Assembly (NCBI GenBank): GCA_963760615.1
Contig: CAVXDX010000015.1
Coordinates: forward strand, 1 to 39,864
Direction of reading: 5' to 3'
Length of the DNA: 39,864 nt
Origin: an uncultured Candidatus Micrarchaeota archaeon
GTDB taxonomy: Archaea; Micrarchaeota; Micrarchaeia; Burarchaeales; Fermentimicrarchaeaceae
A program made the position numbers and the translations under genes. Below the pieces are notes generated by a model. It searched no databases, had not been told where the DNA came from, and saw only the letters and a program-made list of their open reading frames with translations. Of the stretch, positions 3,762 to 27,419 are shown one piece after another; position 1 is the first letter of the stretch; the number at the start of each line of letters is the position of its first letter.

Positions 3762-3852
3762 TGCTCCAGCCGGGATTTGAACCCGGGTCGCCGACTCTCT
3801 TCGCATAAAGCTCGAAAGGCCGGGATCCTTGACCGGACTAGACGACTGGAGC
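3762..3852 (-). tRNA. trnE: tRNA-Glu(TTC) with 16-nt intron at 37/38 (intron 3797-3812); CCA not encoded
   Basis: GCTCCAG/CTGGAGC acceptor stem, CCGGG-TTCAAAT-CCCGG T arm, anticodon arm CCGGC-CT-TTC-G|intron|A-GTCGG. BHB central helix CTTT/GAAG with 3-nt bulges CGA and AGA. Confidence 0.95.
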
Positions 3853-5936: not shown

Positions 5937-6146
5937 ATGGAGAAAGAGGAGCATTTTCTGAGCAAGATACGCCGGCAGGGTAGCGGACTTCATATATATT
6001 TCCCCACAGAAGTAATAAAGAACCCGAACTTCCCGCTCAATGAGAAGGATGCGGTAGTGATAAAGCTTGACCCCAAGAAAAAGACAATTGTGATAAAGAA
6101 GGTTGAGTGGGACAATCTTGTTGGAGAAAGCACCACCATTGAGTAG
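5937..6146 (+). CDS. AbrB/MazE/SpoVT-like swapped-hairpin DNA-binding protein
   Basis: SKIRRQGSGLHIYFPTEVIK...AVVIKLD...IVIKK pattern; own TATA (TTTATATAA at about 5889) and SD; paralog at 22763-22951. Confidence 0.7.
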   Translation: MEKEEHFLSKIRRQGSGLHIYFPTEVIKNPNFPLNEKDAVVIKLDPKKKTIVIKKVEWDNLVGESTTIE

Positions 6147-16528: not shown

Positions 16529-19500
16529 CTAGGCATGGCAGGTCTCGCACCCGCCAGCATAATCAGCGGCAACCACCCCATTCTCATCAACTCCATTGGG
16601 ATGCGCCACAGCACCCTCCTCAACAATCTCCTTCTTTTCCGCTCCCTTGAAAGCATCTATGCTCAGCACCTGCCCCTCCCTGCTTTTATCCCTGTACACA
16701 GTTACGCCCTTGCACCCGAGCTTGTAGGCAAGCATGTACACCTTCTCCACATCCTCCGGAGTTGCATCCACCGGGAAGTTTATCGTCTTTGAAACTGCGT
16801 TGTCTATATACTCCTGGAATGCAGCCTGAATCTTCACGTGCCACTCGGGCGAAACCCCGTAGGCTATTACAAAGATTTCCTTCCATTTTTCTGGAACTTC
16901 CTCAACACTCTGCACTCCCCCACTCTTGGCAATTTTCCTTATGAGCTCCATACTGTAGAACCCCTCTCTTCTTGCAATTCTCTCAAATACTGGATGAACC
17001 TCAAGCAGCTCTGTGTTGTCCATCACCCTTCTCACATAGGCAATTGCAAACAGAGGCTCAATGCCGCTGGAGCATCCCGCAATTATGCTCAATGTCCCTG
17101 TGGGGGCAATTGTCGTAGTTGTGGCATTCCTCAGCTTTGGAGCGCCTGGCTTGTTGTAAACACTTCTCTCAAAATTCGGGAATGCCCCCCTCTTCTCAGC
17201 AAGCTTTACAGATGCCTTCTTGCTCTCGTCGTTTATGAACCCCATGACGCTCCCGGCAACCTCAACAGCCTTCTCCGAGTTGTAAGCAACACCCATCTGG
17301 AAAAGCATATCTGCAAACCCCATCACACCCAGCCCAATCTTCCTGTTTCCCCTGCTCATCTTCTCAATTTCAGGAATTGGGTACTTGTTTGCATCAATCA
17401 CATTATCCAGGAAATGCACGGCAGTCCAAACAACTTTTTTCAGCCTCTCCCAGTCAATCTCCCCATCCTCCTTCACCATTTTTGAGAGGTTTATTGAGCC
17501 CAGATTGCATGACTCGTATGAAAGCAATGGCTGCTCCGCGCAGGGATTAGTGCTCTCGATATGGCCCAAGGCAGGAGTTGGATTTGCTGCATCCATCCTA
17601 TCTATAAAAACCACCCCGGGCTCCCCATTCTTCCATGCCTGCTGCACTATGAGCTTGAAAACTTTTTTTGCGGACAACTTGTCAACAGGTGTTCCGCTCC
17701 TTGGATTCAATAAGTCATAATCCTCATCCCTCTCCACTGCGCCCATGAATCTATCAGTCACAGCAACCGATATGTTGAAATTGTTCAATGCATGCATGCT
17801 GCTCTTCGCCATGATGAACTCCAGTATATCCGGATGATCCACTCTGAGCATCCCCATATTGGCTCCTCTTCTCTTCCCCCCTTGCTTTATCACATCCGTT
17901 GAAACATCAAACACCCTCATGAAGGAGACAGGACCGCTGGCAATCCCGCCGGTTGACTTCACCACGTCTCCCTTCGGCCTCAGCTTTGAGAAGGAGAAGC
18001 CTGTGTTGTGGACTACAGAAAATCCATTCATGCCAGCAAGGTAATTCTGATACTTCTCAACACTGAAATCATAGAATGGTCGAGTCTTGGCAACTTTTGT
18101 AATTTTTTTAACGACAACGCAGGTTTGCACTACCCGTATTAAACTGGCAATTTTTTCCTTTGTATTTCTGTGCGTACTTACTCCGTAGAGTTCTTGCAAG
18201 ATCCCAAGGAGATACAGTCTGTTAACACCAAGCCCCCATCTTAAGCGATGTAACCAGAACTTTTTATTGCCAATACGCGCGGGTTTTTTATGTATAGCTG
18301 TTGAATGGGTTTTTATCCCAAGCTCATTTAGGAAAGGCTCTATAAACTCAAACTTTAGCGGCAGGCAGTCTGCTTTGCCTATCTTTGAAATTTTTTGATT
18401 ATTTAGCCGCTCTTTCTTCATACTGTCATTGACGTAAGGCAATAAAAGTTCCTTCAGCTTGTCCGCTCTCTCGCGTGTTGAAAAGGTGACCTCGTAAACA
18501 ATGCGTTTGCCATTCCCATACGGAAGCCTTCTTCGAATTTTTGGGTCTAACGTTAGTAAAGACAAGACGTAGATAAGCTGCTCTGCTAGCGCATAGGACG
18601 TAGTGGAAAAAGAGACCCTTGAATTCCGGTTATCAACATAACCATCAGAATCTATGAGTCCGGCCAAGTATGAGCAAACAACCTTCAATGGAGATTTTAT
18701 AATGAAAGAGGGTACAGTTAGTCTGCCCTCTTTCGAACCGACAATTCCATTATTGAGATTAAGCCATTTATTAACGAAATCCTTATTCGTCGTGGTTAAG
18801 CTATATACCTCGCCTCTGCTATCTTTTTGGATTTTTACTTTTATCCCAAATTTCTTATCCAATACTCTTTGAGCTTTTTTTAGGCAATCTGTTCTACCAT
18901 CAAATAAGCGAAAACGCAGACCATTTTTTGAATTCCCAACAGAGCCATCCCCAGTCCAGAAGCCCAACAGCCATGCAATGTCCTCATCTACAGTTATGCC
19001 AGATGTGCTGCTATAAGATTCAAATGGCCAAGCAGGAAGGACGGTATCATTAGCCCTGACAACAATATCCTGAACCTGCAACTTATCAGCCCTTTTCTCT
19101 TTAATAAGACCTTCAGGGGTTAAGACAAAGAAAGGGTGCCACGGACTTGTAATTATCTGCGGTCCCGATGTCTCAATGTTATATGCAGGATTGACTTTTG
19201 GGTATTTCCATATCCTGGTTATTCTATCATTGTAGAATGTATTGTTGTTTGGATTAAACGCAAGAGTACGAATATTTTTATCAGATATATCTATCCATTC
19301 GCATGACTTATCACTCACAGGCTGCCTTTCCTTAGCGCATTTTCCATATACAGTTTCTATGTTTTCTATACCACACATCGTTGTGAAAACTTTTGAGCCT
19401 TCCGAGATGCAGCCCCCCCCGGACTGGTGAATCAATGCAGTATTCTTCACCGCATTGAATATGCTCTCAATAGAATCCTCAATCGGCAGGACAAAGCACG

Positions 19501-20110
19501 CAGAGAGCTGCCCTATTTCCGTGCCGGCATTCATCAGCGTTGGGGAATTTGGCAGGAAATCCAAGTTAATCATCGCATTGTAGAACTCCTCCTCCACCTC
19601 GCTTGTGTCAACATTCTTGTCATAGAACATGTCGGCAAGTGCAATTGCCTTTGCGACCCTCCTGAACATCTGCTTTGGAGTCTCAATCACATTCCCATTC
19701 TTATCCTTCTTCAAGTACCTTCTCTCAAGAACCTTCACCGCATTCACAGTAAGCTTGTTATCCACCTCATCAACAGGAACATTGAGCAGCTCAGCCTTCA
19801 GCTCCCTCAGAATGGCTCGCTTCTGCCTGTAAAGGATATACGCCTTGGCAGTCTTGGCATGCCCATTCTCAATGAGGACTTTCTCAACAGTATCCTGCAC
19901 ATCCTCTACTGTTGGAATCCTCCCTGCAAAATTCTCATTCACAATCGCAACAACATTATCCGCAAGCTTCTCTGCTATCTCTCGGTCCTCCCCCCCAACC
20001 GCGACTGCAGCCTTGAAAATAGCATTGGTTATCTTACTCTTGTCAAAATCAACAATCTTCCCTTCTCTTTTTTTAATCTGACTAACTGCCGCCTTACCTC
20101 CTTCAGCCAT
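16529..20110 (-). CDS. nrdJ: Class II (adenosylcobalamin-dependent) ribonucleotide reductase with N-terminal ATP cone, intein-containing
   Basis: ATP cone, [27 protein letters not shown], catalytic [34 protein letters not shown]-terminal CETC. No NrdB/NrdF gene nearby; cobO adjacent. Confidence 0.93.
18005..19411 (-). mobile_element. Intein with LAGLIDADG homing endonuclease (469 aa) in nrdJ
   Basis: Junctions HQSGGG|CISEGSKV and GFSVVHN|TGFSFS; endonuclease blocks LLGFWTGDG and [10 protein letters not shown]; removal restores GGGTGFSFS; visibly more AT-rich than the exteins. Confidence 0.96.
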
Positions 20111-20141
20111 CACACCACCTTCAATGATAATAATACCCTCT

Positions 20142-21501: not shown

Positions 21502-21526
21502 TTAGAATTTCCAAGATAGTTTTAGA
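21502..21526 (+). repeat. Left copy of 25-bp imperfect direct repeat flanking the GNAT block
   Basis: TTAGAATTTCCAAGATAGTTTTAGA; 22/25 identical to 26722-26746. Confidence 0.6.
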
Positions 21527-21579: not shown

Positions 21580-22743
21580 ATGAATGACATAACTCAGAAA
21601 CCCAAACAGGAAAACCCCATGGATATCATAAAAACTCCGGAACTCCTCCTCGTCCGCATTGAGAGCTTCACCTCCAAGGAAATGAGCAATGCGTGCAAGG
21701 GGCTAGATGAAAAACTCCTTGGAAGAGTGGCTGCAATGTGCGAAAGCATTGCAAACTCGGGAGAAAAGCCATACTGCGCAGTGCAAACAATACTCAACAT
21801 GTCGAAAAAGAAGGACTGCACGGAGGAGATACTGAATTCAGTTATGAAACACTTTGAGCAATTCCCCGACACCTGGTTATCCTACCAGACCGAAAAACTT
21901 TCGCAGGATGTTTCTGCCGCACAACTCTTCAAATCCATCCCGCTTATGGAGAGAATCTGCAAATGGAACAGGAGGGCATTTTCTGTCAGACTTGATGAGG
22001 AACATTTTGTCTTCCTGACCTCGCAACTTGTAACCGCCCTTGGCGACCAAAAAGGGCTTGAAAAATGCATGGAATTAGGTAAGGAATGTGCAGAGAGGGG
22101 AATACACCCGGAAGACCTCCAGCATACCCTGGTACTGCTTATAAAGAAGCATCCCACCAACGAACAGTTCAATACAGTTGTCGATGAATTATCAAAGCTC
22201 CTAACCTTCATTGAGCCAGCCCCCCATGCACTTAAAAATCTTCCGGATGAGATACAATTCTCCAAAACTGATGAATTCATCAAATATCTCAAAGACTTCA
22301 ATTTTAAGAATGACCCATCCAGAAAAGCAATTAGGGTGACAATTGATATACCAAAAGAAGAAGAGCTGTCCAAGGTGCTTCGGATATACGATCAATATAA
22401 GGGAGAACGCGGAGATGTCGGGGTGCACAATACATGGGTCGCACATGCTAAGGGAGACTTTGTAGGGGCAGCTAAGGGGGACCTTGTAGGTGGGATGACT
22501 GTGGAGGAAGTTTTGGGCACCACATTCATTAGGGTTATAGGTGTTGAACCCGGACTTAAAAGAAGAAAAATTGGAGAACAAATGGTCAGTTGGCTTAGCA
22601 AGAAAATTACTGAGGAGGACGGCATCCTATCTGTTGAATTACCAAAGGAACGTGAAGGCCAGCCGGAATTCTATGCTAAGCTGGGATTTAAAAAAGGTCT
22701 TACAAACGAAAAAGGAGAGTTGATAATGGAGTACAGACCCTGA
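21580..22743 (+). CDS. Helical N-terminal domain fused to C-terminal GNAT acetyltransferase domain
   Basis: C-terminal ~140 aa: NTWVA...VGGMTV...IRVIGVEPGLKRRKIGEQMV...EFYAKLGF. Confidence 0.8.
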   Translation: MNDITQKPKQENPMDIIKTPELLLVRIESFTSKEMSNACKGLDEKLLGRVAAMCESIANSGEKPYCAVQTILNMSKKKDCTEEILNSVMKHFEQFPDTWLSYQTEKLSQDVSAAQLFKSIPLMERICKWNRRAFSVRLDEEHFVFLTSQLVTALGDQKGLEKCMELGKECAERGIHPEDLQHTLVLLIKKHPTNEQFNTVVDELSKLLTFIEPAPHALKNLPDEIQFSKTDEFIKYLKDFNFKNDPSRKAIRVTIDIPKEEELSKVLRIYDQYKGERGDVGVHNTWVAHAKGDFVGAAKGDLVGGMTVEEVLGTTFIRVIGVEPGLKRRKIGEQMVSWLSKKITEEDGILSVELPKEREGQPEFYAKLGFKKGLTNEKGELIMEYRP

Positions 22744-22762
22744 AAATTTTATAAAACTTAGA

Positions 22763-22951
22763 CTACTGAGTTTGAACTTCCTTGGACTCTTCCTTCAGTT
22801 TTTCAATTATAACTTTTCTTCCATCAATTTTCATCCTCACCTTTTCACTGATTTGAAAAGGGAATGCGCTGTCCTTGAAAATATCCATTGGAATGTAGAT
22901 GCATGAGCCCCCTCTTCCGAATTTGTATATCTGGGTTTCTTTTTCTTTCAT
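22763..22951 (-). CDS. AbrB/SpoVT-like small DNA-binding protein
   Basis: IYKFGRGGSCIYIPMDIFKDSAFPF...KVRMKIDGRKVIIEK; aligns with 5937-6146; AT-rich TATA region upstream. Confidence 0.7.
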   Translation of the reverse strand: MKEKETQIYKFGRGGSCIYIPMDIFKDSAFPFQISEKVRMKIDGRKVIIEKLKEESKEVQTQ

Positions 22952-23182
22952 TTGGTCGCCTTGAATCTATTATAATAAACCTATATAAAAATGTTATATA
23001 CGAATCCATAAACATACTCTTCGTCGTAATCGCTTTTTTCAACCCTCTTTTGCCCTGGAAGCTTGCTTTCTTCACCCATGAGCATCAAATTCCATGTTTA
23101 TGAAACAAATTGGTTTGTGAAAATGCCTTTTCGGGCTTTTGGAAAACGGTTTGGAATTTGGCTCGGAATTTGGAGGGGAATT

Positions 23183-23614
23183 TCAAACATGCTTTACCAT
23201 TGTAACCAAAGGCATTCCGCCTTTAGCTTCAAACCCCAGTTTATCAAAGAGCTCTATCATATCCTCCTTTGCAGGGTCAATTTTCACTTCAATCCTACTG
23301 AAGCCCTCCCTTTTCATCTCCTCAATCACTTTTGAAACCATCTGCCGTCCAATCTCCCTGTCCTGAAGCTCTGGCTTAACTCCTATAACCCTCAATTCCG
23401 CGCAGTTAGCACCCAATTCAAGGAATCTAATATAATTCCTGTTTACGGTTATTGCTCCAACTATATCTCCTGATCCATCCTTCGCAACAAAAGTGTTATC
23501 TTTGTTCACACCCTCACAAATTCCCTTATGCTGCCTGTAGATGCTGGTGACTATCGGCAAGTCCGTTAGCTTTGCTGGTTCAACAGTCACAACAATTGGT
23601 TTTTCCTTCAGCAT
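23183..23614 (-). CDS. GNAT family N-acetyltransferase
   Basis: NTFVAKDGSGDIVGAITV, LRVIGVKPELQDREIGRQMV, LFDKLGF. Confidence 0.85.
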   Translation of the reverse strand: MLKEKPIVVTVEPAKLTDLPIVTSIYRQHKGICEGVNKDNTFVAKDGSGDIVGAITVNRNYIRFLELGANCAELRVIGVKPELQDREIGRQMVSKVIEEMKREGFSRIEVKIDPAKEDMIELFDKLGFEAKGGMPLVTMVKHV

Positions 23615-23624
23615 GCAACATACC

Positions 23625-24026
23625 TTAAAGATGTTTAATCATTGATTGGGAATCCAGCATCTCAAATCCAAACTGAGAGTAGAAACTCTGCCTGTTTTCC
23701 TGAGGGAGGTCAACAACAACCGCCCTCTTCCCCTGCCTCCTCATCTCATCCACAACCGCCCCGAGCAGCTGGCTTCCGATCCCTCTGCCGTGCAATGCTG
23801 GGTCAACGCAAATCACCTCTATCTTAACCCACGAAGGTTGCGGCTCCGATACTGTTGCAGCCCCGATAACAGCTCTGGCTTGGTTTCTGGCAACGAACGT
23901 ATTGCTAGGATTCACGTTACTGCACCTCCTATCATTCTGCCAGTAAATCCCTGTAACAACCGGTAGTTCGCTAACTTGCGCATTCCCGATGCTCACTTCA
24001 ATAAATCCTGGTTTTTCTGCATTCAT
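23625..24026 (-). CDS. GNAT family N-acetyltransferase
   Basis: NTFVARN...VIGAATV, motif A CVDPALHGRGIGSQLL, SFYSQFGF. ATGA overlap with the upstream gene. Confidence 0.9.
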   Translation of the reverse strand: MNAEKPGFIEVSIGNAQVSELPVVTGIYWQNDRRCSNVNPSNTFVARNQARAVIGAATVSEPQPSWVKIEVICVDPALHGRGIGSQLLGAVVDEMRRQGKRAVVVDLPQENRQSFYSQFGFEMLDSQSMIKHL

Positions 24027-24424
24027 AACTCAAGCACCATTTCAGATGGGTTCAACTCCTTAAACCCGAATTTTTTGTAGAACCATTGATTCCTGTTTTG
24101 ATGAGCAATATAAATTACCTTGTACCCATCATTTTTTAAATCTTCAATAACCGCCTCAAGTAACTGCTTTCCTACACCTTTTCCCTCAAAAGCCGGGTCT
24201 ACGCCAACACTGCGTATAGTTGCAATGTTTGGATTAGTTTTAAATGTCACAGCTCCAACCACAATGCCGGCTGCATTCCTAGCAACATAAGTATTGTCAC
24301 AACCTACTTGAGTGGTATCCGCCTCGCGTTTTCTGTATATATCCAGCACAATAGGTATCTCCTCTGGCGTTGCCTTCCCCGCAGTAACTTTTATCCTAGC
24401 TGGCTTTTCTGCGTGAATACTCAT
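24023..24424 (-). CDS. GNAT family N-acetyltransferase
   Basis: NTYVARNAAGIVVGAVT, motif A GVDPAFEGKGVGKQLL, WFYKKFGF. Confidence 0.9.
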   Translation of the reverse strand: MSIHAEKPARIKVTAGKATPEEIPIVLDIYRKREADTTQVGCDNTYVARNAAGIVVGAVTFKTNPNIATIRSVGVDPAFEGKGVGKQLLEAVIEDLKNDGYKVIYIAHQNRNQWFYKKFGFKELNPSEMVLEL

Positions 24425-24439
24425 ACTATCACTTGGAAC

Positions 24440-26092
24440 CTAAATCTCATGAGCCATCTTACTGGAATCCAAACTCCAAAACCCCAACTTTGAATAAAAC
24501 TGCCTTTGCTCCAATGGAACTTCGGCAACAATTGCCCTGAATCCATCATTTTTTGCCTCCTTCCCAACCATTGCAATCAATTTAGCTTCAACATCTTTAT
24601 TCTGCCAGTTCTGCTCAACCCCTAACGCCTTAATATATATCCACTCAAAATCAGGCATTTCTTCAACAGTTACAGCTCCAATCAACTTTCCTCTATTATC
24701 ACATGCTACAAATATGTTATCAGAATTCACCCCACTGCTTCCCACCCCACATCTGCGGTACATCTCCATAACGCTCTGGATTTCTTCAGGCTTCACTCTC
24801 TCAACACTCACTTTTCTTATAAGAATCCTTTCCACAGCATTATTGAATATTCTTTCAGAATATCCCATCACGGCTATCAGTCTATCCTCCTCAGGATCTA
24901 AACCCTCCTTCTGGCACCTTTTCAGGTGGTTTTCAAAAGTAGCAATACTAACCTGTTCTATCACTTCTGGGTGCATCCACCATCTGAAATTATACCTCTC
25001 AGCCATTTCCGTTATCTGCATCAAGTGTTTCCTCCAGTCTGCATGGGCTTTCAGAAGCTCATCAACCATATAGCTACTTAGATGAAACTTCTCTATGTCA
25101 TCTGAGAACATCCCAGCCTTCACGCACCTAAGAGCCAGCTTCTCTGAGAAACCAATCTTCTCGAGTTCCCCCATCTGAGCCAGCAACATTTCGTTGGTCT
25201 CCCAGGGATTTTCCAGTAATGGTTCAAGCATCCAGACGTAATGTTTTTCAAAAACCGGCCAAAATCTTTTGTCTATTCTGTGTAACCACCTCTTGGGAGT
25301 CTTGAAACTAGGATTTTCCAGTCCCTCACTGCAAGCCAGCCCCTTGTAATATTCGGTAAGTTCCTCCTTCTTTATAGCAACTTCCCTTTCCAACAGGCCT
25401 CCATCGGCAGCAATGGCAGATAGCAATCCTCTTATACGCCTCTCTTTTATAGCAGGGAGCTCTTTTTTTATGAAGTTGGCTATCTTCGAATAGCTCATAA
25501 CCCCATTATGCGTCTCAAATTCGTTCTGAAGTTTCTCAAATGCCTTCCTCTCAGGACCCAGCAGGCCGCTTAGGGAGGAGGAGTATCCCTTGGAATCATA
25601 AAAGTAGACAACCGGGGGGTAAAGCTCGCCGAGAGGCATTTCTATTCCCAGGTGGTTGCGGTAGACTTTTTCCACCAGCCCGCCGCGGTTCACAAGCTTA
25701 TTCAATAAATCGAATATCCTCTCATCAGATATGCTGGGGGCACTTTCTTTTATGAAAGCAATTACCTCATCTCTCTCCATAACGTTTTTTCTAATCTTGC
25801 CAGTCAGATCATCGAATGCCTTCCTCTCCAGAATCTCGCTTATCCTCTCATCTGATAGGTAAGGAATCTTTTCTTTTATGAAGGCATTTATTTCATCTTT
25901 CTTAATAGCACCATTTTTAACATGGCGAGCCAAGTCACCCAACGCATTTTTCTCAACCCCGTTTAATTCAGCCAAGTCCAGATCTCTCAGAGAGTAAAAA
26001 TACTCCCGGTAGGCATAAACAATTTTTGATGGCACCGCCGATGTCTCTTCTATCTGACTCTTGAGAGGTGCCTCAAGCACAACTTTAGTCAT
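24440..26092 (-). CDS. Large protein: repeated helical N-terminal modules plus C-terminal GNAT domain
   Basis: C-terminal NIFVACDNRGKLIGAVTV, LGVEQNWQNKDVEAKLI, QFYSKLGF; three internal helical repeats of about 42-50 aa in aa 47-236. Confidence 0.8.
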   Translation of the reverse strand: MTKVVLEAPLKSQIEETSAVPSKIVYAYREYFYSLRDLDLAELNGVEKNALGDLARHVKNGAIKKDEINAFIKEKIPYLSDERISEILERKAFDDLTGKIRKNVMERDEVIAFIKESAPSISDERIFDLLNKLVNRGGLVEKVYRNHLGIEMPLGELYPPVVYFYDSKGYSSSLSGLLGPERKAFEKLQNEFETHNGVMSYSKIANFIKKELPAIKERRIRGLLSAIAADGGLLEREVAIKKEELTEYYKGLACSEGLENPSFKTPKRWLHRIDKRFWPVFEKHYVWMLEPLLENPWETNEMLLAQMGELEKIGFSEKLALRCVKAGMFSDDIEKFHLSSYMVDELLKAHADWRKHLMQITEMAERYNFRWWMHPEVIEQVSIATFENHLKRCQKEGLDPEEDRLIAVMGYSERIFNNAVERILIRKVSVERVKPEEIQSVMEMYRRCGVGSSGVNSDNIFVACDNRGKLIGAVTVEEMPDFEWIYIKALGVEQNWQNKDVEAKLIAMVGKEAKNDGFRAIVAEVPLEQRQFYSKLGFWSLDSSKMAHEI

Positions 26093-26171
26093 GTTTAACT
26101 TTTCTCTCTTGAGATATAAAAATAAGGCGGGTTACCGGTAATCAATTTAACTTCTCTTGAGAAATTATAGC

Positions 26172-26708
26172 ATGGAAGCGAAGCCAGTTAAAATCGAACT
26201 CAAGATATTGTACGGGGACTTGGGTAAGGAGTATTGGAAAGATTACAACCCACTTGAGCGGAAATTCGAAGAATCAGTTGGAGCTGGTGATGTAATTTCT
26301 GGCAGGGGGTACCTTGAGAGGAAAAGCAGGGTGAATATCGTGGCTCTTTCCGAAGGCAAGCCAGCTGGAATCATCAGGCTGGACCTGCTGAACCAGCCTC
26401 CGAGAATAGGATGGCTTTATGTCGAGCCGGAGTTCAGGAATAAGGTAGCGGCGGTCGTAAATACTCCCTGGCTGAAAAGCGAGGAGGAGTACAAAGTCAG
26501 GCAGCATCTTGTGAAGGCGGCGTGGATTACAGGCAGGAGAGCGGGTTTTGAAGAGATTGGCAGTGTGATTCACGAGGAAGCTGGGCAGAAGTCAAGGGAG
26601 TGGCGTCTTACGCAAATGCCCAAATGGGAGAGGGAAGTTGTTGAGTTGCATGAGCCTAGGGAGTTGCTGGAGTTAATACGGCGCAAGCAAGAGCTGGTTA
26701 AGAGGTAG
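26172..26708 (+). CDS. Divergent GNAT-like protein
   Basis: IVALSEGKPAGIIRL...IGWLYVEPEFRNK resembles GNAT beta2-beta4 and the start of motif A, followed by an insertion. N-terminal AKP echoes the EKP of neighbouring copies. Confidence 0.6.
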   Translation: MEAKPVKIELKILYGDLGKEYWKDYNPLERKFEESVGAGDVISGRGYLERKSRVNIVALSEGKPAGIIRLDLLNQPPRIGWLYVEPEFRNKVAAVVNTPWLKSEEEYKVRQHLVKAAWITGRRAGFEEIGSVIHEEAGQKSREWRLTQMPKWEREVVELHEPRELLELIRRKQELVKR

Positions 26709-26721
26709 TTCTAATACTTAT

Positions 26722-26746
26722 TTAGAATTTCTAAAATAGTTTAAGA
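26722..26746 (+). repeat. Right copy of 25-bp imperfect direct repeat flanking the GNAT block
   Basis: TTAGAATTTCTAAAATAGTTTAAGA; part of the palindrome TTTAGAA-T-TTCTAAA at 26721-26735. Confidence 0.6.
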
Positions 26747-26801: not shown

Positions 26802-27419
26802 CTAATTCGTAAGCCTGAATGAGACTACACCATTCACATCTTCAAAAAGGCTCTTGGCCCTCTCCCCGAATTCTTTAGTCCTGTCCAGCATCTCACCCTT
26901 GTCCGGGTCCTCCTTCATGGGTTTCAAATTGACGTATATATCCAAGAGTGCTCCCTGCACCCCTGCATTCGCAGCCAGAGCGGCAACGCCAACGTCACTG
27001 ACAGAGTTAACATTCCCTTTGAATGCAACAATTTTTGACAGTTCCAAACTTCTTATGCCAATCTTCGCTATTTCCATAGGGGTCATGGTTGCTTTTTTAA
27101 GGGCATTCTGGATGACCTCCACCCTCCTTGGGTTGTCCTTGGGGGTTTTGTAAGCATTCATGACCTCATTGAAAACTGCAGCATCCTCATCAATCAATTC
27201 CTCCGCCCTCTTTCTAAGGGCTCCCGCCTCCTCGAGGATTTTCTTCAGCTCGCTCTCACTTTCCTCGTACCCTTTCTTGCCAATCGTGAGCTCGCATACC
27301 ATGCATATCAGGGATGCGCCAACAGAGCAGAGCAGCGCCGAGGCGCTTCCCCCTCCTGGCGTTGGTGAGGAAGAGGCCAGTTCATCAAGGAATTCATGCA
27401 TTTTCATATCCTTCAACAT
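26802..27419 (-). CDS. Formiminotetrahydrofolate cyclodeaminase (FTCD C-terminal domain protein)
   Basis: FLDELASSSPTPGGGSASA, LIDEDAAVF, GNVNSVSDVGVA, NIYVNL-like LDIYVNL. Confidence 0.92.
   Translation of the reverse strand: MLKDMKMHEFLDELASSSPTPGGGSASALLCSVGASLICMVCELTIGKKGYEESESELKKILEEAGALRKRAEELIDEDAAVFNEVMNAYKTPKDNPRRVEVIQNALKKATMTPMEIAKIGIRSLELSKIVAFKGNVNSVSDVGVAALAANAGVQGALLDIYVNLKPMKEDPDKGEMLDRTKEFGERAKSLFEDVNGVVSFRLTN

Follow-up and report, generated by a model that had tools for sequence, protein, structure and literature searches.

Background

Several described systems stand close to the locus presented here. Some GNATs are known toxins, free-standing ones of 130-140 aa commonly have small molecules as substrates, and the archaeal Pat is a GNAT acetylating a lysine of the chromatin protein Alba. 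Presence/absence variation, cassette swaps, pseudogenes, raised evolutionary rates and hot spots are typical traits of defence islands. In this work, we describe a block of GNAT genes at positions 21580-26708 of a contig of 39,864 nucleotides from an uncultured Candidatus Micrarchaeota archaeon, which belongs to the DPANN archaea, a group believed to rely on other cells for its way of life. The entire contig is referred to below as the window, and it comes from a genome of 1.14 Mb that is 91% complete.

Five genes of the block encode GNAT domains of one short family, standing alone or fused to long N-terminal modules, and depending on the strain the same chromosomal slot holds a different set of them. 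We consider it moderately probable that the block is an accessory, strain-variable, fast-turnover acetyltransferase set aimed at macromolecules, kept in a slot of Candidatus Fermentimicrarchaeum (Micrarchaeota, DPANN). The family is restricted to two genera; GNAT enzymes themselves are a known kind, found here in a cassette-exchanging locus. Literature searches returned no paper on the family or on the locus.

Results

Five GNATs of one private family

All six open reading frames (ORFs) of the initial annotation were confirmed in coordinates, strand and length and are labelled A to F (Table 1). That annotation had counted six GNAT-like genes, and the count stands for A-E, all of which exceed the Pfam gathering cut-offs: A with PF13508 at 32.5 bits (residues 285-372), B and C with PF00583 at 50.4 and 49.9 bits, D with PF13508 at 56.4 bits and E at 31.9 bits, the Pfam GNAT models giving 28-32 bits at its residues 456-547. 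It fails for F, with 16.4 bits against a cut-off of 20.7 (E = 0.011). On these scores B, C and D, together with the C-terminal domains of A and E, are true GNATs, and they form one private short family.

Table 1. Features of the GNAT block and its borders, in window positions
Feature	Position	Strand	Description
Left palindrome copy (half-site)	21502-21526		TTAGAAnTTCYAA; 53 nt upstream of the A start codon
Gene A	21580-22743	+	387 aa; residues 1-250 alpha-helical repeat scaffold, ~251-387 GNAT
s62	22763-22951	-	small conserved 62-aa protein
Gene B	23183-23614	-	143 aa; stand-alone GNAT
Gene C	23625-24026	-	133 aa; stand-alone GNAT
Gene D	24023-24424	-	133 aa; stand-alone GNAT; ATGA overlap with C
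Gene E	24440-26092	-	550 aa; three predicted winged-helix-type repeats, helical linker, C-terminal GNAT ~427-550
E/F divergent promoter region	26093-26171		TATA-like boxes on both strands and TCTCTTGAGA repeats
Gene F	26157-26708	+	183 aa as ORF; probably 178 aa from ATG 26172
Right full palindrome copy	26710-26746		core TTAGAATTTCTAA at 26722-26734; 2 nt past the F stop codon

The clustering of the five copies far exceeds chance. In the whole genome PF00583 gives 11 matches, 6 of them inside the block and 5 of these 6 above the cut-off, and when every ORF of the genome is searched with a hidden Markov model (HMM) of the family, the five copies reach 133-190 bits and the next-best GNAT only 39.7 bits. 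Several structural details of the initial annotation held as well. The minus-strand genes are tightly packed, with spacers of 10 nt (C/B) and 15 nt (E/D) and an ATGA shared by the stop codon of D and the start codon of C, so that the intergenic spacing from B to E is -4 to 15 nt and leaves no room for additional ORFs. The split into stand-alone and fused forms is real, the EKP beginning is true of B, C and D, and a signal peptide is missing as stated: none of the six proteins has a hydrophobic N-terminus when the sequences are read, and neither sequence reading nor Pfam gave a signal peptide or a known trafficking domain in the block.

An exhaustive profile search of 1.84 billion representatives yielded about 20 full-length members, 14 of them at E <= 1e-30, and below these only generic partial GNAT matches. 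Members occur in two Micrarchaeota genera and in the same slot in every case in which the context was read. They are about 130 aa long and carry an N-terminal MxxAEKPxxIEV, followed by IY, NTxVA, GAxT, GVxP and FYxKxGF motifs. Alignments bear out the private signature claimed for the five copies, taken as a consensus to which each motif has one or two exceptions: B departs from it by D for E and LF for FY, E by NIF, GVEQ and MY, A by VGGMT, and C by CVDP and FYSQ.

The copies differ in how well they keep the acetyl-CoA pyrophosphate loop, which follows beta4 with the pattern Q/R-x-x-G-x-G/A. Both glycines are present in C (HGRGIG) and D (EGKGVG), one is lost in A (KRRKIG) and B (QDREIG), and both are gone in E (QNKDVE), a state common to E orthologs. 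The tyrosine of FYxKxGF, in GNATs the general acid of the alpha4 motif, is kept in A, C, D and E, and B has phenylalanine in its place (LFDKLGF), as does most of its clade. Acetyl-CoA binding uses backbone amides, so that erosion of the loop does not prove loss of function.

N-terminal modules and their exchangeable heads

Gene E contains three repeats of about 42 aa (residues ~57-100, 101-142 and 193-237) that are 38-44% identical to one another (E ~1e-9). In an AlphaFold2 model of moderate confidence, with a predicted local distance difference test (pLDDT) score of 61, residues 162-240 matched winged-helix domains from proteins such as cullins, MCM, MukF and Fur with Z 5.5-7.5, i.e. below 8, over about 60 residues and at a root mean square deviation of about 2 A; the region has no Pfam match. 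In G001 and L026 the E-type N-terminal region is a gene of its own, located directly before a stand-alone GNAT, and judged from these gene orders E shows fusion/fission polymorphism.

The N-terminus of A is modelled as all helical, with pLDDT above 90 at residues 20-125. Searches with it gave nothing at E <= 0.001 in the PDB by Foldseek, only designed helical repeats and no natural structural match by VIA-align, and only unrelated hypothetical proteins at a template modelling score of about 0.5 in the Atlas shape search; the ESM Atlas feature search returned nothing usable for the N-termini of A or E. The two modules are even scarcer than the GNAT family: each is represented by four proteins in an index of 5.8 billion proteins, and among 200 genomes of the class neither was met outside one family. 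An apparent echo between them (GLDPEE in one, GIHPED in the other) was considered as a sign of homology and is unsupported, the hhalign probability being 0.8%.

The N-terminus of A is 41-64% identical to those of a 543-aa protein with a GNAT and of proteins of 601-634 aa, which in G001, G006 and L019 join an A-type scaffold to a C-terminal CheR-like methyltransferase (PF01739, E = 7.7e-8, 32.4 bits against a cut-off of 27 for the G006 protein). In L026, L037 and P0155 the scaffold carries a GNAT head. The 543-aa protein has the same middle region as the 601-634-aa forms but a GNAT head, and the forms of 387-410 aa resemble A. From these comparisons, one A scaffold carries either a methyltransferase or an acetyltransferase head. 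By tblastn the CheR-type domain is missing altogether from the genome studied here.

This exchange bears on what the enzymes may act upon. They could be small-molecule N-acetyltransferases with a metabolic or detoxifying role, each with an acceptor of its own among amino acids, polyamines, antibiotics or toxic analogues, and the fused forms would be regulators responding to those compounds. The best NCBIfam and PDB neighbours, weak as they are, do include amino-acid N-acetyltransferases, ArsN2 and 1y9k, fusions of a winged-helix domain to a GNAT can be ligand-sensing regulators, and an E ortholog is labelled by JGI as 'N-acetylglutamate synthase-like GNAT / DNA-binding protein'. The solved structures nearest by profile are 1y9k, an 'IAA acetyltransferase' (E = 2.8e-11), 1z4e, 6ao7, Naa50/Naa30 and RimI, and PDB profile matches overall range from E 3e-11 to 8e-7. 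Against this, the NCBIfam scores are all far under the cut-offs and no curated family is reached, the best being RimI TIGR01575 with D at 40.8 of the required 86.4 bits; no biosynthetic or transport genes lie alongside the array; the swap of GNAT and CheR-type heads on the same scaffold points to a protein target; and turnover of whole cassettes would be unusual for core metabolism. We therefore regard a small-molecule function as unlikely, though it is the strongest of the alternatives.

A fixed slot with variable content

Contexts were read in three genomes (G001, G002 and G006) and in nine other metagenome contigs (L017-L019, L026-L029, L037 and L038). The family lies in the same slot in 3/3 member genomes and in 9/9 contigs, between FTCD_N-FTCD_C on one side and a membrane protein, Fdx, CobO, NrdR and ribonucleotide reductase (RNR) on the other. 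The number of family GNAT domains in the slot is anything but constant. G004 and G005, which belong to the same genus, have none and contain only s62. One domain each was found in G002, in G006 (together with a 601-aa A-type protein), in L017 (together with a broken C-like copy) and on each of two contigs of G001, one with a separate E-type N-terminal gene and the other with a 634-aa A-type protein. L026 and L027 have two each, as does L019, in which D is accompanied by an interrupted E; L029 has at least two, its contig ending directly after the second GNAT, and L037 has three. The window has five, and is without the membrane protein, p206 and the CheR-like domain. The comparison of copy number across relatives suggested in the initial annotation thus gave a range from 0 to 5, and the array is not invariant. 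Decay is visible in the broken C-like gene of L017, the interrupted E of L019 and an E remnant in L027. In the present genome the block takes up 0.45% of a reduced 1.14-Mb complement.

Two further contents of the slot were noticed. At L019:4437-5611, a 1.2-kb insertion interrupts E between residues 65 and 96; it holds a 52-aa DUF2080 gene and a 320-aa ORF without family match, and may be a small mobile element. The slot of G002 and G006 also contains a form III-like RuBisCO and Sua5 (L013:8509-9822 and L016:8512-10056).

Cassette replacement within a mosaic locus

L037 is the nearest relative, most of its flanking proteins sharing 90-97% identity with their counterparts in the window. At the DNA level the two are 85-89% identical over A-s62 and over E-F-FTCD, and the B-C-D segment between them (23186-24386) has zero nucleotide similarity to L037, where its counterpart is a single B-clade GNAT of 156 aa. 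Directly after E, the next gene, which is D in the window, begins with the same 24 nt (ATGAGTATTCACGCAGAAAAGCCA, encoding MSIHAEKP) in the window, L037, L019 and L027, and similarity between strains stops after about codon 9-12. We infer that this 5' patch is a recombination junction.

Synonymous divergence (dS) changes abruptly along the locus. Compared with L037 it is 0.16 for A and 0.24 for E, most flanking genes lying at about 0.5-0.6 (NrdR 0.23); compared with L019 it is 0.125 for E, with most flanks at 0.6-0.76 (FTCD_C 1.9). Because dS is discordant in this way, A and E having lower values than the flanks, the locus is best read as a mosaic.

Two observations were made beside these segments. 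FTCD_C (window 26802-27419, minus strand) is a divergent outlier, 68% identical to its L037 ortholog with a dS of 2.8, and the adjoining FTCD_N is 89% identical with a dS of 0.62; the jump suggests allele replacement by recombination beside the variable slot. At window 23608-23624 (minus strand) an out-of-frame ATG, 7 nt upstream of the start of B, reads MLHAE..., like the MxHAEKP start of the family, and the start of B may have shifted after a 1-nt change.

Kinship of the copies and tempo of change

A maximum-likelihood tree built from 30 members of the family groups each copy of the window with sequences of other genomes. The clade of D contains members from L017 (78% identical), L019 (67%), G002 (58%) and G001 (48-49%). 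A 58%-identical homolog of D carries the name Candidatus Fermentimicrarchaeum limneticum, which agrees with a micrarchaeal origin of the window. E groups with the E of L019, A with P0016 and P0021, and B with P0015, P0022, P0012 and P0014 (support 96/85); C is placed near G001, G006 and P0013 without resolution, and its nearest relatives, in G001, G006 and L029, are 44-47% identical. In the approximately unbiased (AU) test, forcing the five copies of the window into one clade costs 455 log-likelihood units (p = 3e-90), and forcing B, C and D together gives p = 3e-4. The local amplification proposed in the initial annotation is refuted by this tree and test. The copies are not one another's closest kin, and hence the array is an accumulation or retention of old paralogs rather than the product of fresh duplication.

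Ratios of nonsynonymous to synonymous substitution rates (dN/dS) were calculated by the Nei-Gojobori method. For the flanking RNR, NrdR, CobO and FTCD genes they are 0.04-0.12, for D 0.18-0.26, for A 0.35 and for E 0.47-0.53, i.e. 3-10 times the values of the flanks. The A ortholog in L037 is 88% identical, and the E orthologs are 78% (L037) and 86% (the interrupted copy of L019) identical. A ratio above 1 was met in no whole gene, nor in any domain of A or E. These rates fit relaxed constraint or partial diversifying selection, and positive selection is not proven. The word 'diversifying', used of the array before, is borne out by these raised ratios and, for the turnover of the locus, by copy number, pseudogenes and cassette replacement.

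Such a tempo could also be expected of an anti-virus defence or conflict island, whose GNATs would modify viral or host macromolecules and vary in an arms race. Presence/absence polymorphism, cassette replacement, pseudogenes, raised dN/dS and discordant dS speak for it, as do the slightly low GC content of the block (43.9% against 46.9%) and the fixed 'hot spot' among housekeeping genes. Yet the search for a known defence system came back with weak generic GNAT-domain matches only: in PADLOC-DB 2.0 the best was PDC-M11A at E = 3.8e-5, over about 60 of 486 model positions, and nothing was found for the N-termini of A and E, for F, s62 or the extra genes of the relatives. PHROGs matches are to generic acetyltransferases only, and across PADLOC, PHROGs and NCBIfam no specific family was reached for any gene of the locus or any extra gene of the relatives. 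The slot is without a nuclease, ATPase, sensor or other known partner, and dN/dS stays below 1. We hold a defence island to be quite improbable.

The same rates may be read as a sign of decay, the block being a lineage-specific accessory family under relaxed selection that is lost piecemeal, the present genome simply having kept the largest number of copies, some already inactive. The eroded loops of A, B and E, the broken or interrupted copies of relatives and the complete absence from G004 and G005 agree with this, and so do dN/dS values of 0.2-0.5 with no signal above 1. What makes it very improbable to us is that five intact ORFs are present here, tightly packed and operon-like, with dN/dS clearly below 1; that the A and E orthologs are full length in L037; that orthologs of E have the eroded loop in common, a hint that the variant is maintained; and that a reduced genome devotes the share of its length given above to the block.

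Gene F and the small gene s62

The family HMM, run over all ORFs of the genome, did not recover F at E <= 10, and in profile-profile comparison with the family (hhalign) F reached a probability of 5.7%; its membership in the family was rejected on the HMM result, and by hhalign the case for it is weak. Five of eight F orthologs also match Pfam GNAT models weakly. At the position of the acetyl-CoA loop F has an insertion, and it is without the loop, the FYxKxGF motif and the tyrosine of this motif. As judged from these profiles and motifs, the block contains five confirmed GNATs and not six, and the kinship of F to GNATs is unproven. F evolves slowly, its orthologs being 58-96% identical with dN/dS of 0.07-0.10. 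All of them share an ATG at the position equivalent to 26172, for which reason F is probably the shorter of the two forms given in Table 1 and starts with MEAKP.

The gene s62 is the sole constant gene of the variable slot. It is 75-95% identical in all relatives (dN/dS 0.05-0.10), and it has no Pfam or PDB sequence match. Its likeness to AbrB/SpoVT is by eye only, and an assignment to that family was set aside as it has no such sequence support. A 69-aa paralog of s62 is located at window 5937-6146 (plus strand), 29% identical and with the same IYxP..FP..V..D pattern.

Least probable of all we find a GNAT toxin array that would acetylate aminoacyl-tRNA like TacT or AtaT, with s62 as an AbrB-type antitoxin: s62 does lie on the same strand as the GNATs and downstream of them at every locus and looks AbrB/SpoVT-like, but it is retained, about 90% identical, in the GNAT-less G004 and G005, shows no co-variation with the GNATs, themselves just 30-45% alike, lies 231 nt away from B and would have to serve as a single antitoxin for five toxins, while Pfam finds no ribbon-helix-helix (RHH) or DUF1778 gene among the ORFs of the block and the GNATs have 133-143 aa against roughly 160-175 aa for the toxins.

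Palindromes and promoter elements

Two 25-nt repeats at 21502-26 and 26722-46 are copies of a palindrome with the core TTAGAAnTTCTAA and bracket the block. A TATA-like TTTAATATA is located between the left copy and the ATG of A. In 5/5 genomes the core is nearly unique to the slot (a reversed-pattern control gave 0-1 hits), and the palindrome is kept in the slot of every relative, GNAT-less G004 and G005 included. It precedes the start of A or A-long by 36-61 nt, the D-like GNATs of G002 and G006 by 48-61 nt, and p206 by 23-78 nt; at several loci it is also placed immediately behind the stop codon of F or s62. The right-hand site stands before p206 in relatives, a gene lost here, and in G002 and G006 the palindrome is located in the divergent region between RuBisCO and the GNAT. 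We read it as a putative local operator or boundary element, with s62 and the winged-helix region of E as candidate binders by position.

A target-site duplication or insertion scar was ruled out as the origin of the repeats, since they are present in the slots of all relatives, GNAT-less ones included. The core is found a third time in the genome (G000 contig 6, position 1103), inside an unrelated fragmented coding sequence, and this occurrence looks like chance.

The E/F promoter region holds two copies of the inverted repeat TCTCTTGAGA beside its TATA-like boxes and is conserved in L037, L019, L026 and L027. The repeats may be an operator.

Other features of the window

At about residues 235-703 the class II RNR (window 16529-20113, minus strand) is interrupted by an intein with a LAGLIDADG-type insert. 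None is present in L037, L017, L026 and L027; G002 has an insert at a second site only (~residue 858) and L019 at both sites. The RNR intein is a presence/absence polymorphism among close strains. The tRNA-Glu(UUC) gene (window 3762-3852, minus strand) has 91 nt against the 71 positions of the Rfam model and probably contains an intron.

Discussion

The explanation that we prefer, an accessory and fast-changing acetyltransferase set directed at macromolecules, would work as follows. C and D, which keep both the acetyl-CoA loop and the catalytic tyrosine, would act as acetyltransferases. The GNAT of E would be delivered to its substrate by the three predicted winged-helix repeats and that of A by the alpha-helical repeat scaffold, and the substrates would be macromolecules (protein, possibly nucleic-acid-bound) rather than metabolites. 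The CheR-type head on the A scaffold of sister strains implies that one targeting module can present different modifying heads. Three routes of turnover act on the locus: genes are lost and decay; whole GNAT cassettes are replaced, probably via recombination at the 5' MSIHAEKP patch; and domains are fused, split and swapped. The purpose may be conflict with a host or virus, or regulation of the cell itself; a part in defence, as a toxin or as a host effector is conceivable.

Several points weigh against this explanation. The AlphaFold2 models on which the targeting modules depend were built from alignments of 5 sequences (pLDDT 61 and 72), and both the winged-helix matches (Z 5.5-7.5) and the helical ones (Z up to 8.8) may reflect only a common arrangement. 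The function is dispensable, as two genomes of the same genus are without these GNATs, and short stand-alone GNATs often act on small molecules. Some copies may be inactive or in decay, given that A, B and E have eroded loops and B is without the tyrosine. Finally, since dN/dS remains below 1, relaxed constraint fits the rates as well as diversifying selection does.

A bolder form of the idea is a cassette-shuffling effector locus, in which targeting modules combine with swappable GNAT or CheR heads, the stand-alone GNATs form a reserve exchanged at the 5' patch, and the whole is governed by its own palindromic operator and serves conflict with a host or virus, as an archaeal, non-secreted counterpart of polymorphic toxins. 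We put it forward as a speculation and think it distinctly unlikely.

DPANN genomes are reduced, and DNA spent on a fast-changing private enzyme set probably matters to the lifestyle of the cell. In compact and natural form, the locus illustrates how modifying enzymes may be re-aimed, with a GNAT that is alone, fused or split, heads that are swapped and cassettes that are exchanged. Should the targets be macromolecules of a host or virus, the locus would be an archaeal conflict system of a new kind; should they be chromatin or regulators of the cell itself, it would mean strain-level rewiring of protein acetylation.

Comparison with known systems

With generic small GNATs (Acetyltransf_1/7/10) the family shares the core motifs, the beta4-alpha3 acetyl-CoA loop (canonical in C and D) and FYxKxGF; unlike them it is shorter (~130 aa), has N-terminal and NTxVA motifs of its own and is confined to one slot in two genera. 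GNAT type II toxins (TacT, AtaT, ItaT and KacT) resemble it in the GNAT fold, the small genes and a small neighbour gene. The differences are the missing RHH/DUF1778 partner, the persistence of s62 without GNATs, the shorter proteins and the lack of interleaved partners.

In the case of archaeal Pat and its substrate Alba, a likeness may be seen in the predicted winged-helix repeats carried by E and in the small conserved protein encoded alongside. Any kinship to Pat is, so far as shown, at the level of the superfamily, and no Alba or Sir2 gene is present in the locus, so that the parallel is at most one of analogy. CheR-type S-adenosylmethionine-dependent protein methyltransferases are met as the head of the A-type scaffold in G001, G006 and L019, where the present genome has a GNAT instead.

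Polymorphic toxin loci and those of the contact-dependent inhibition (CDI)-Rhs kind provide a further comparison. Here too a conserved N-terminal module (A) carries a strain-variable head, of GNAT or CheR type, and here too related stand-alone cassettes are located downstream of a long gene (E) and share a conserved junction patch. In contrast to those loci, there are no immunity genes between the cassettes, no secretion or trafficking domain and no signal peptide; the heads are modifying enzymes, and the stand-alone cassettes have their own start codons and are predicted to be expressed rather than silent.

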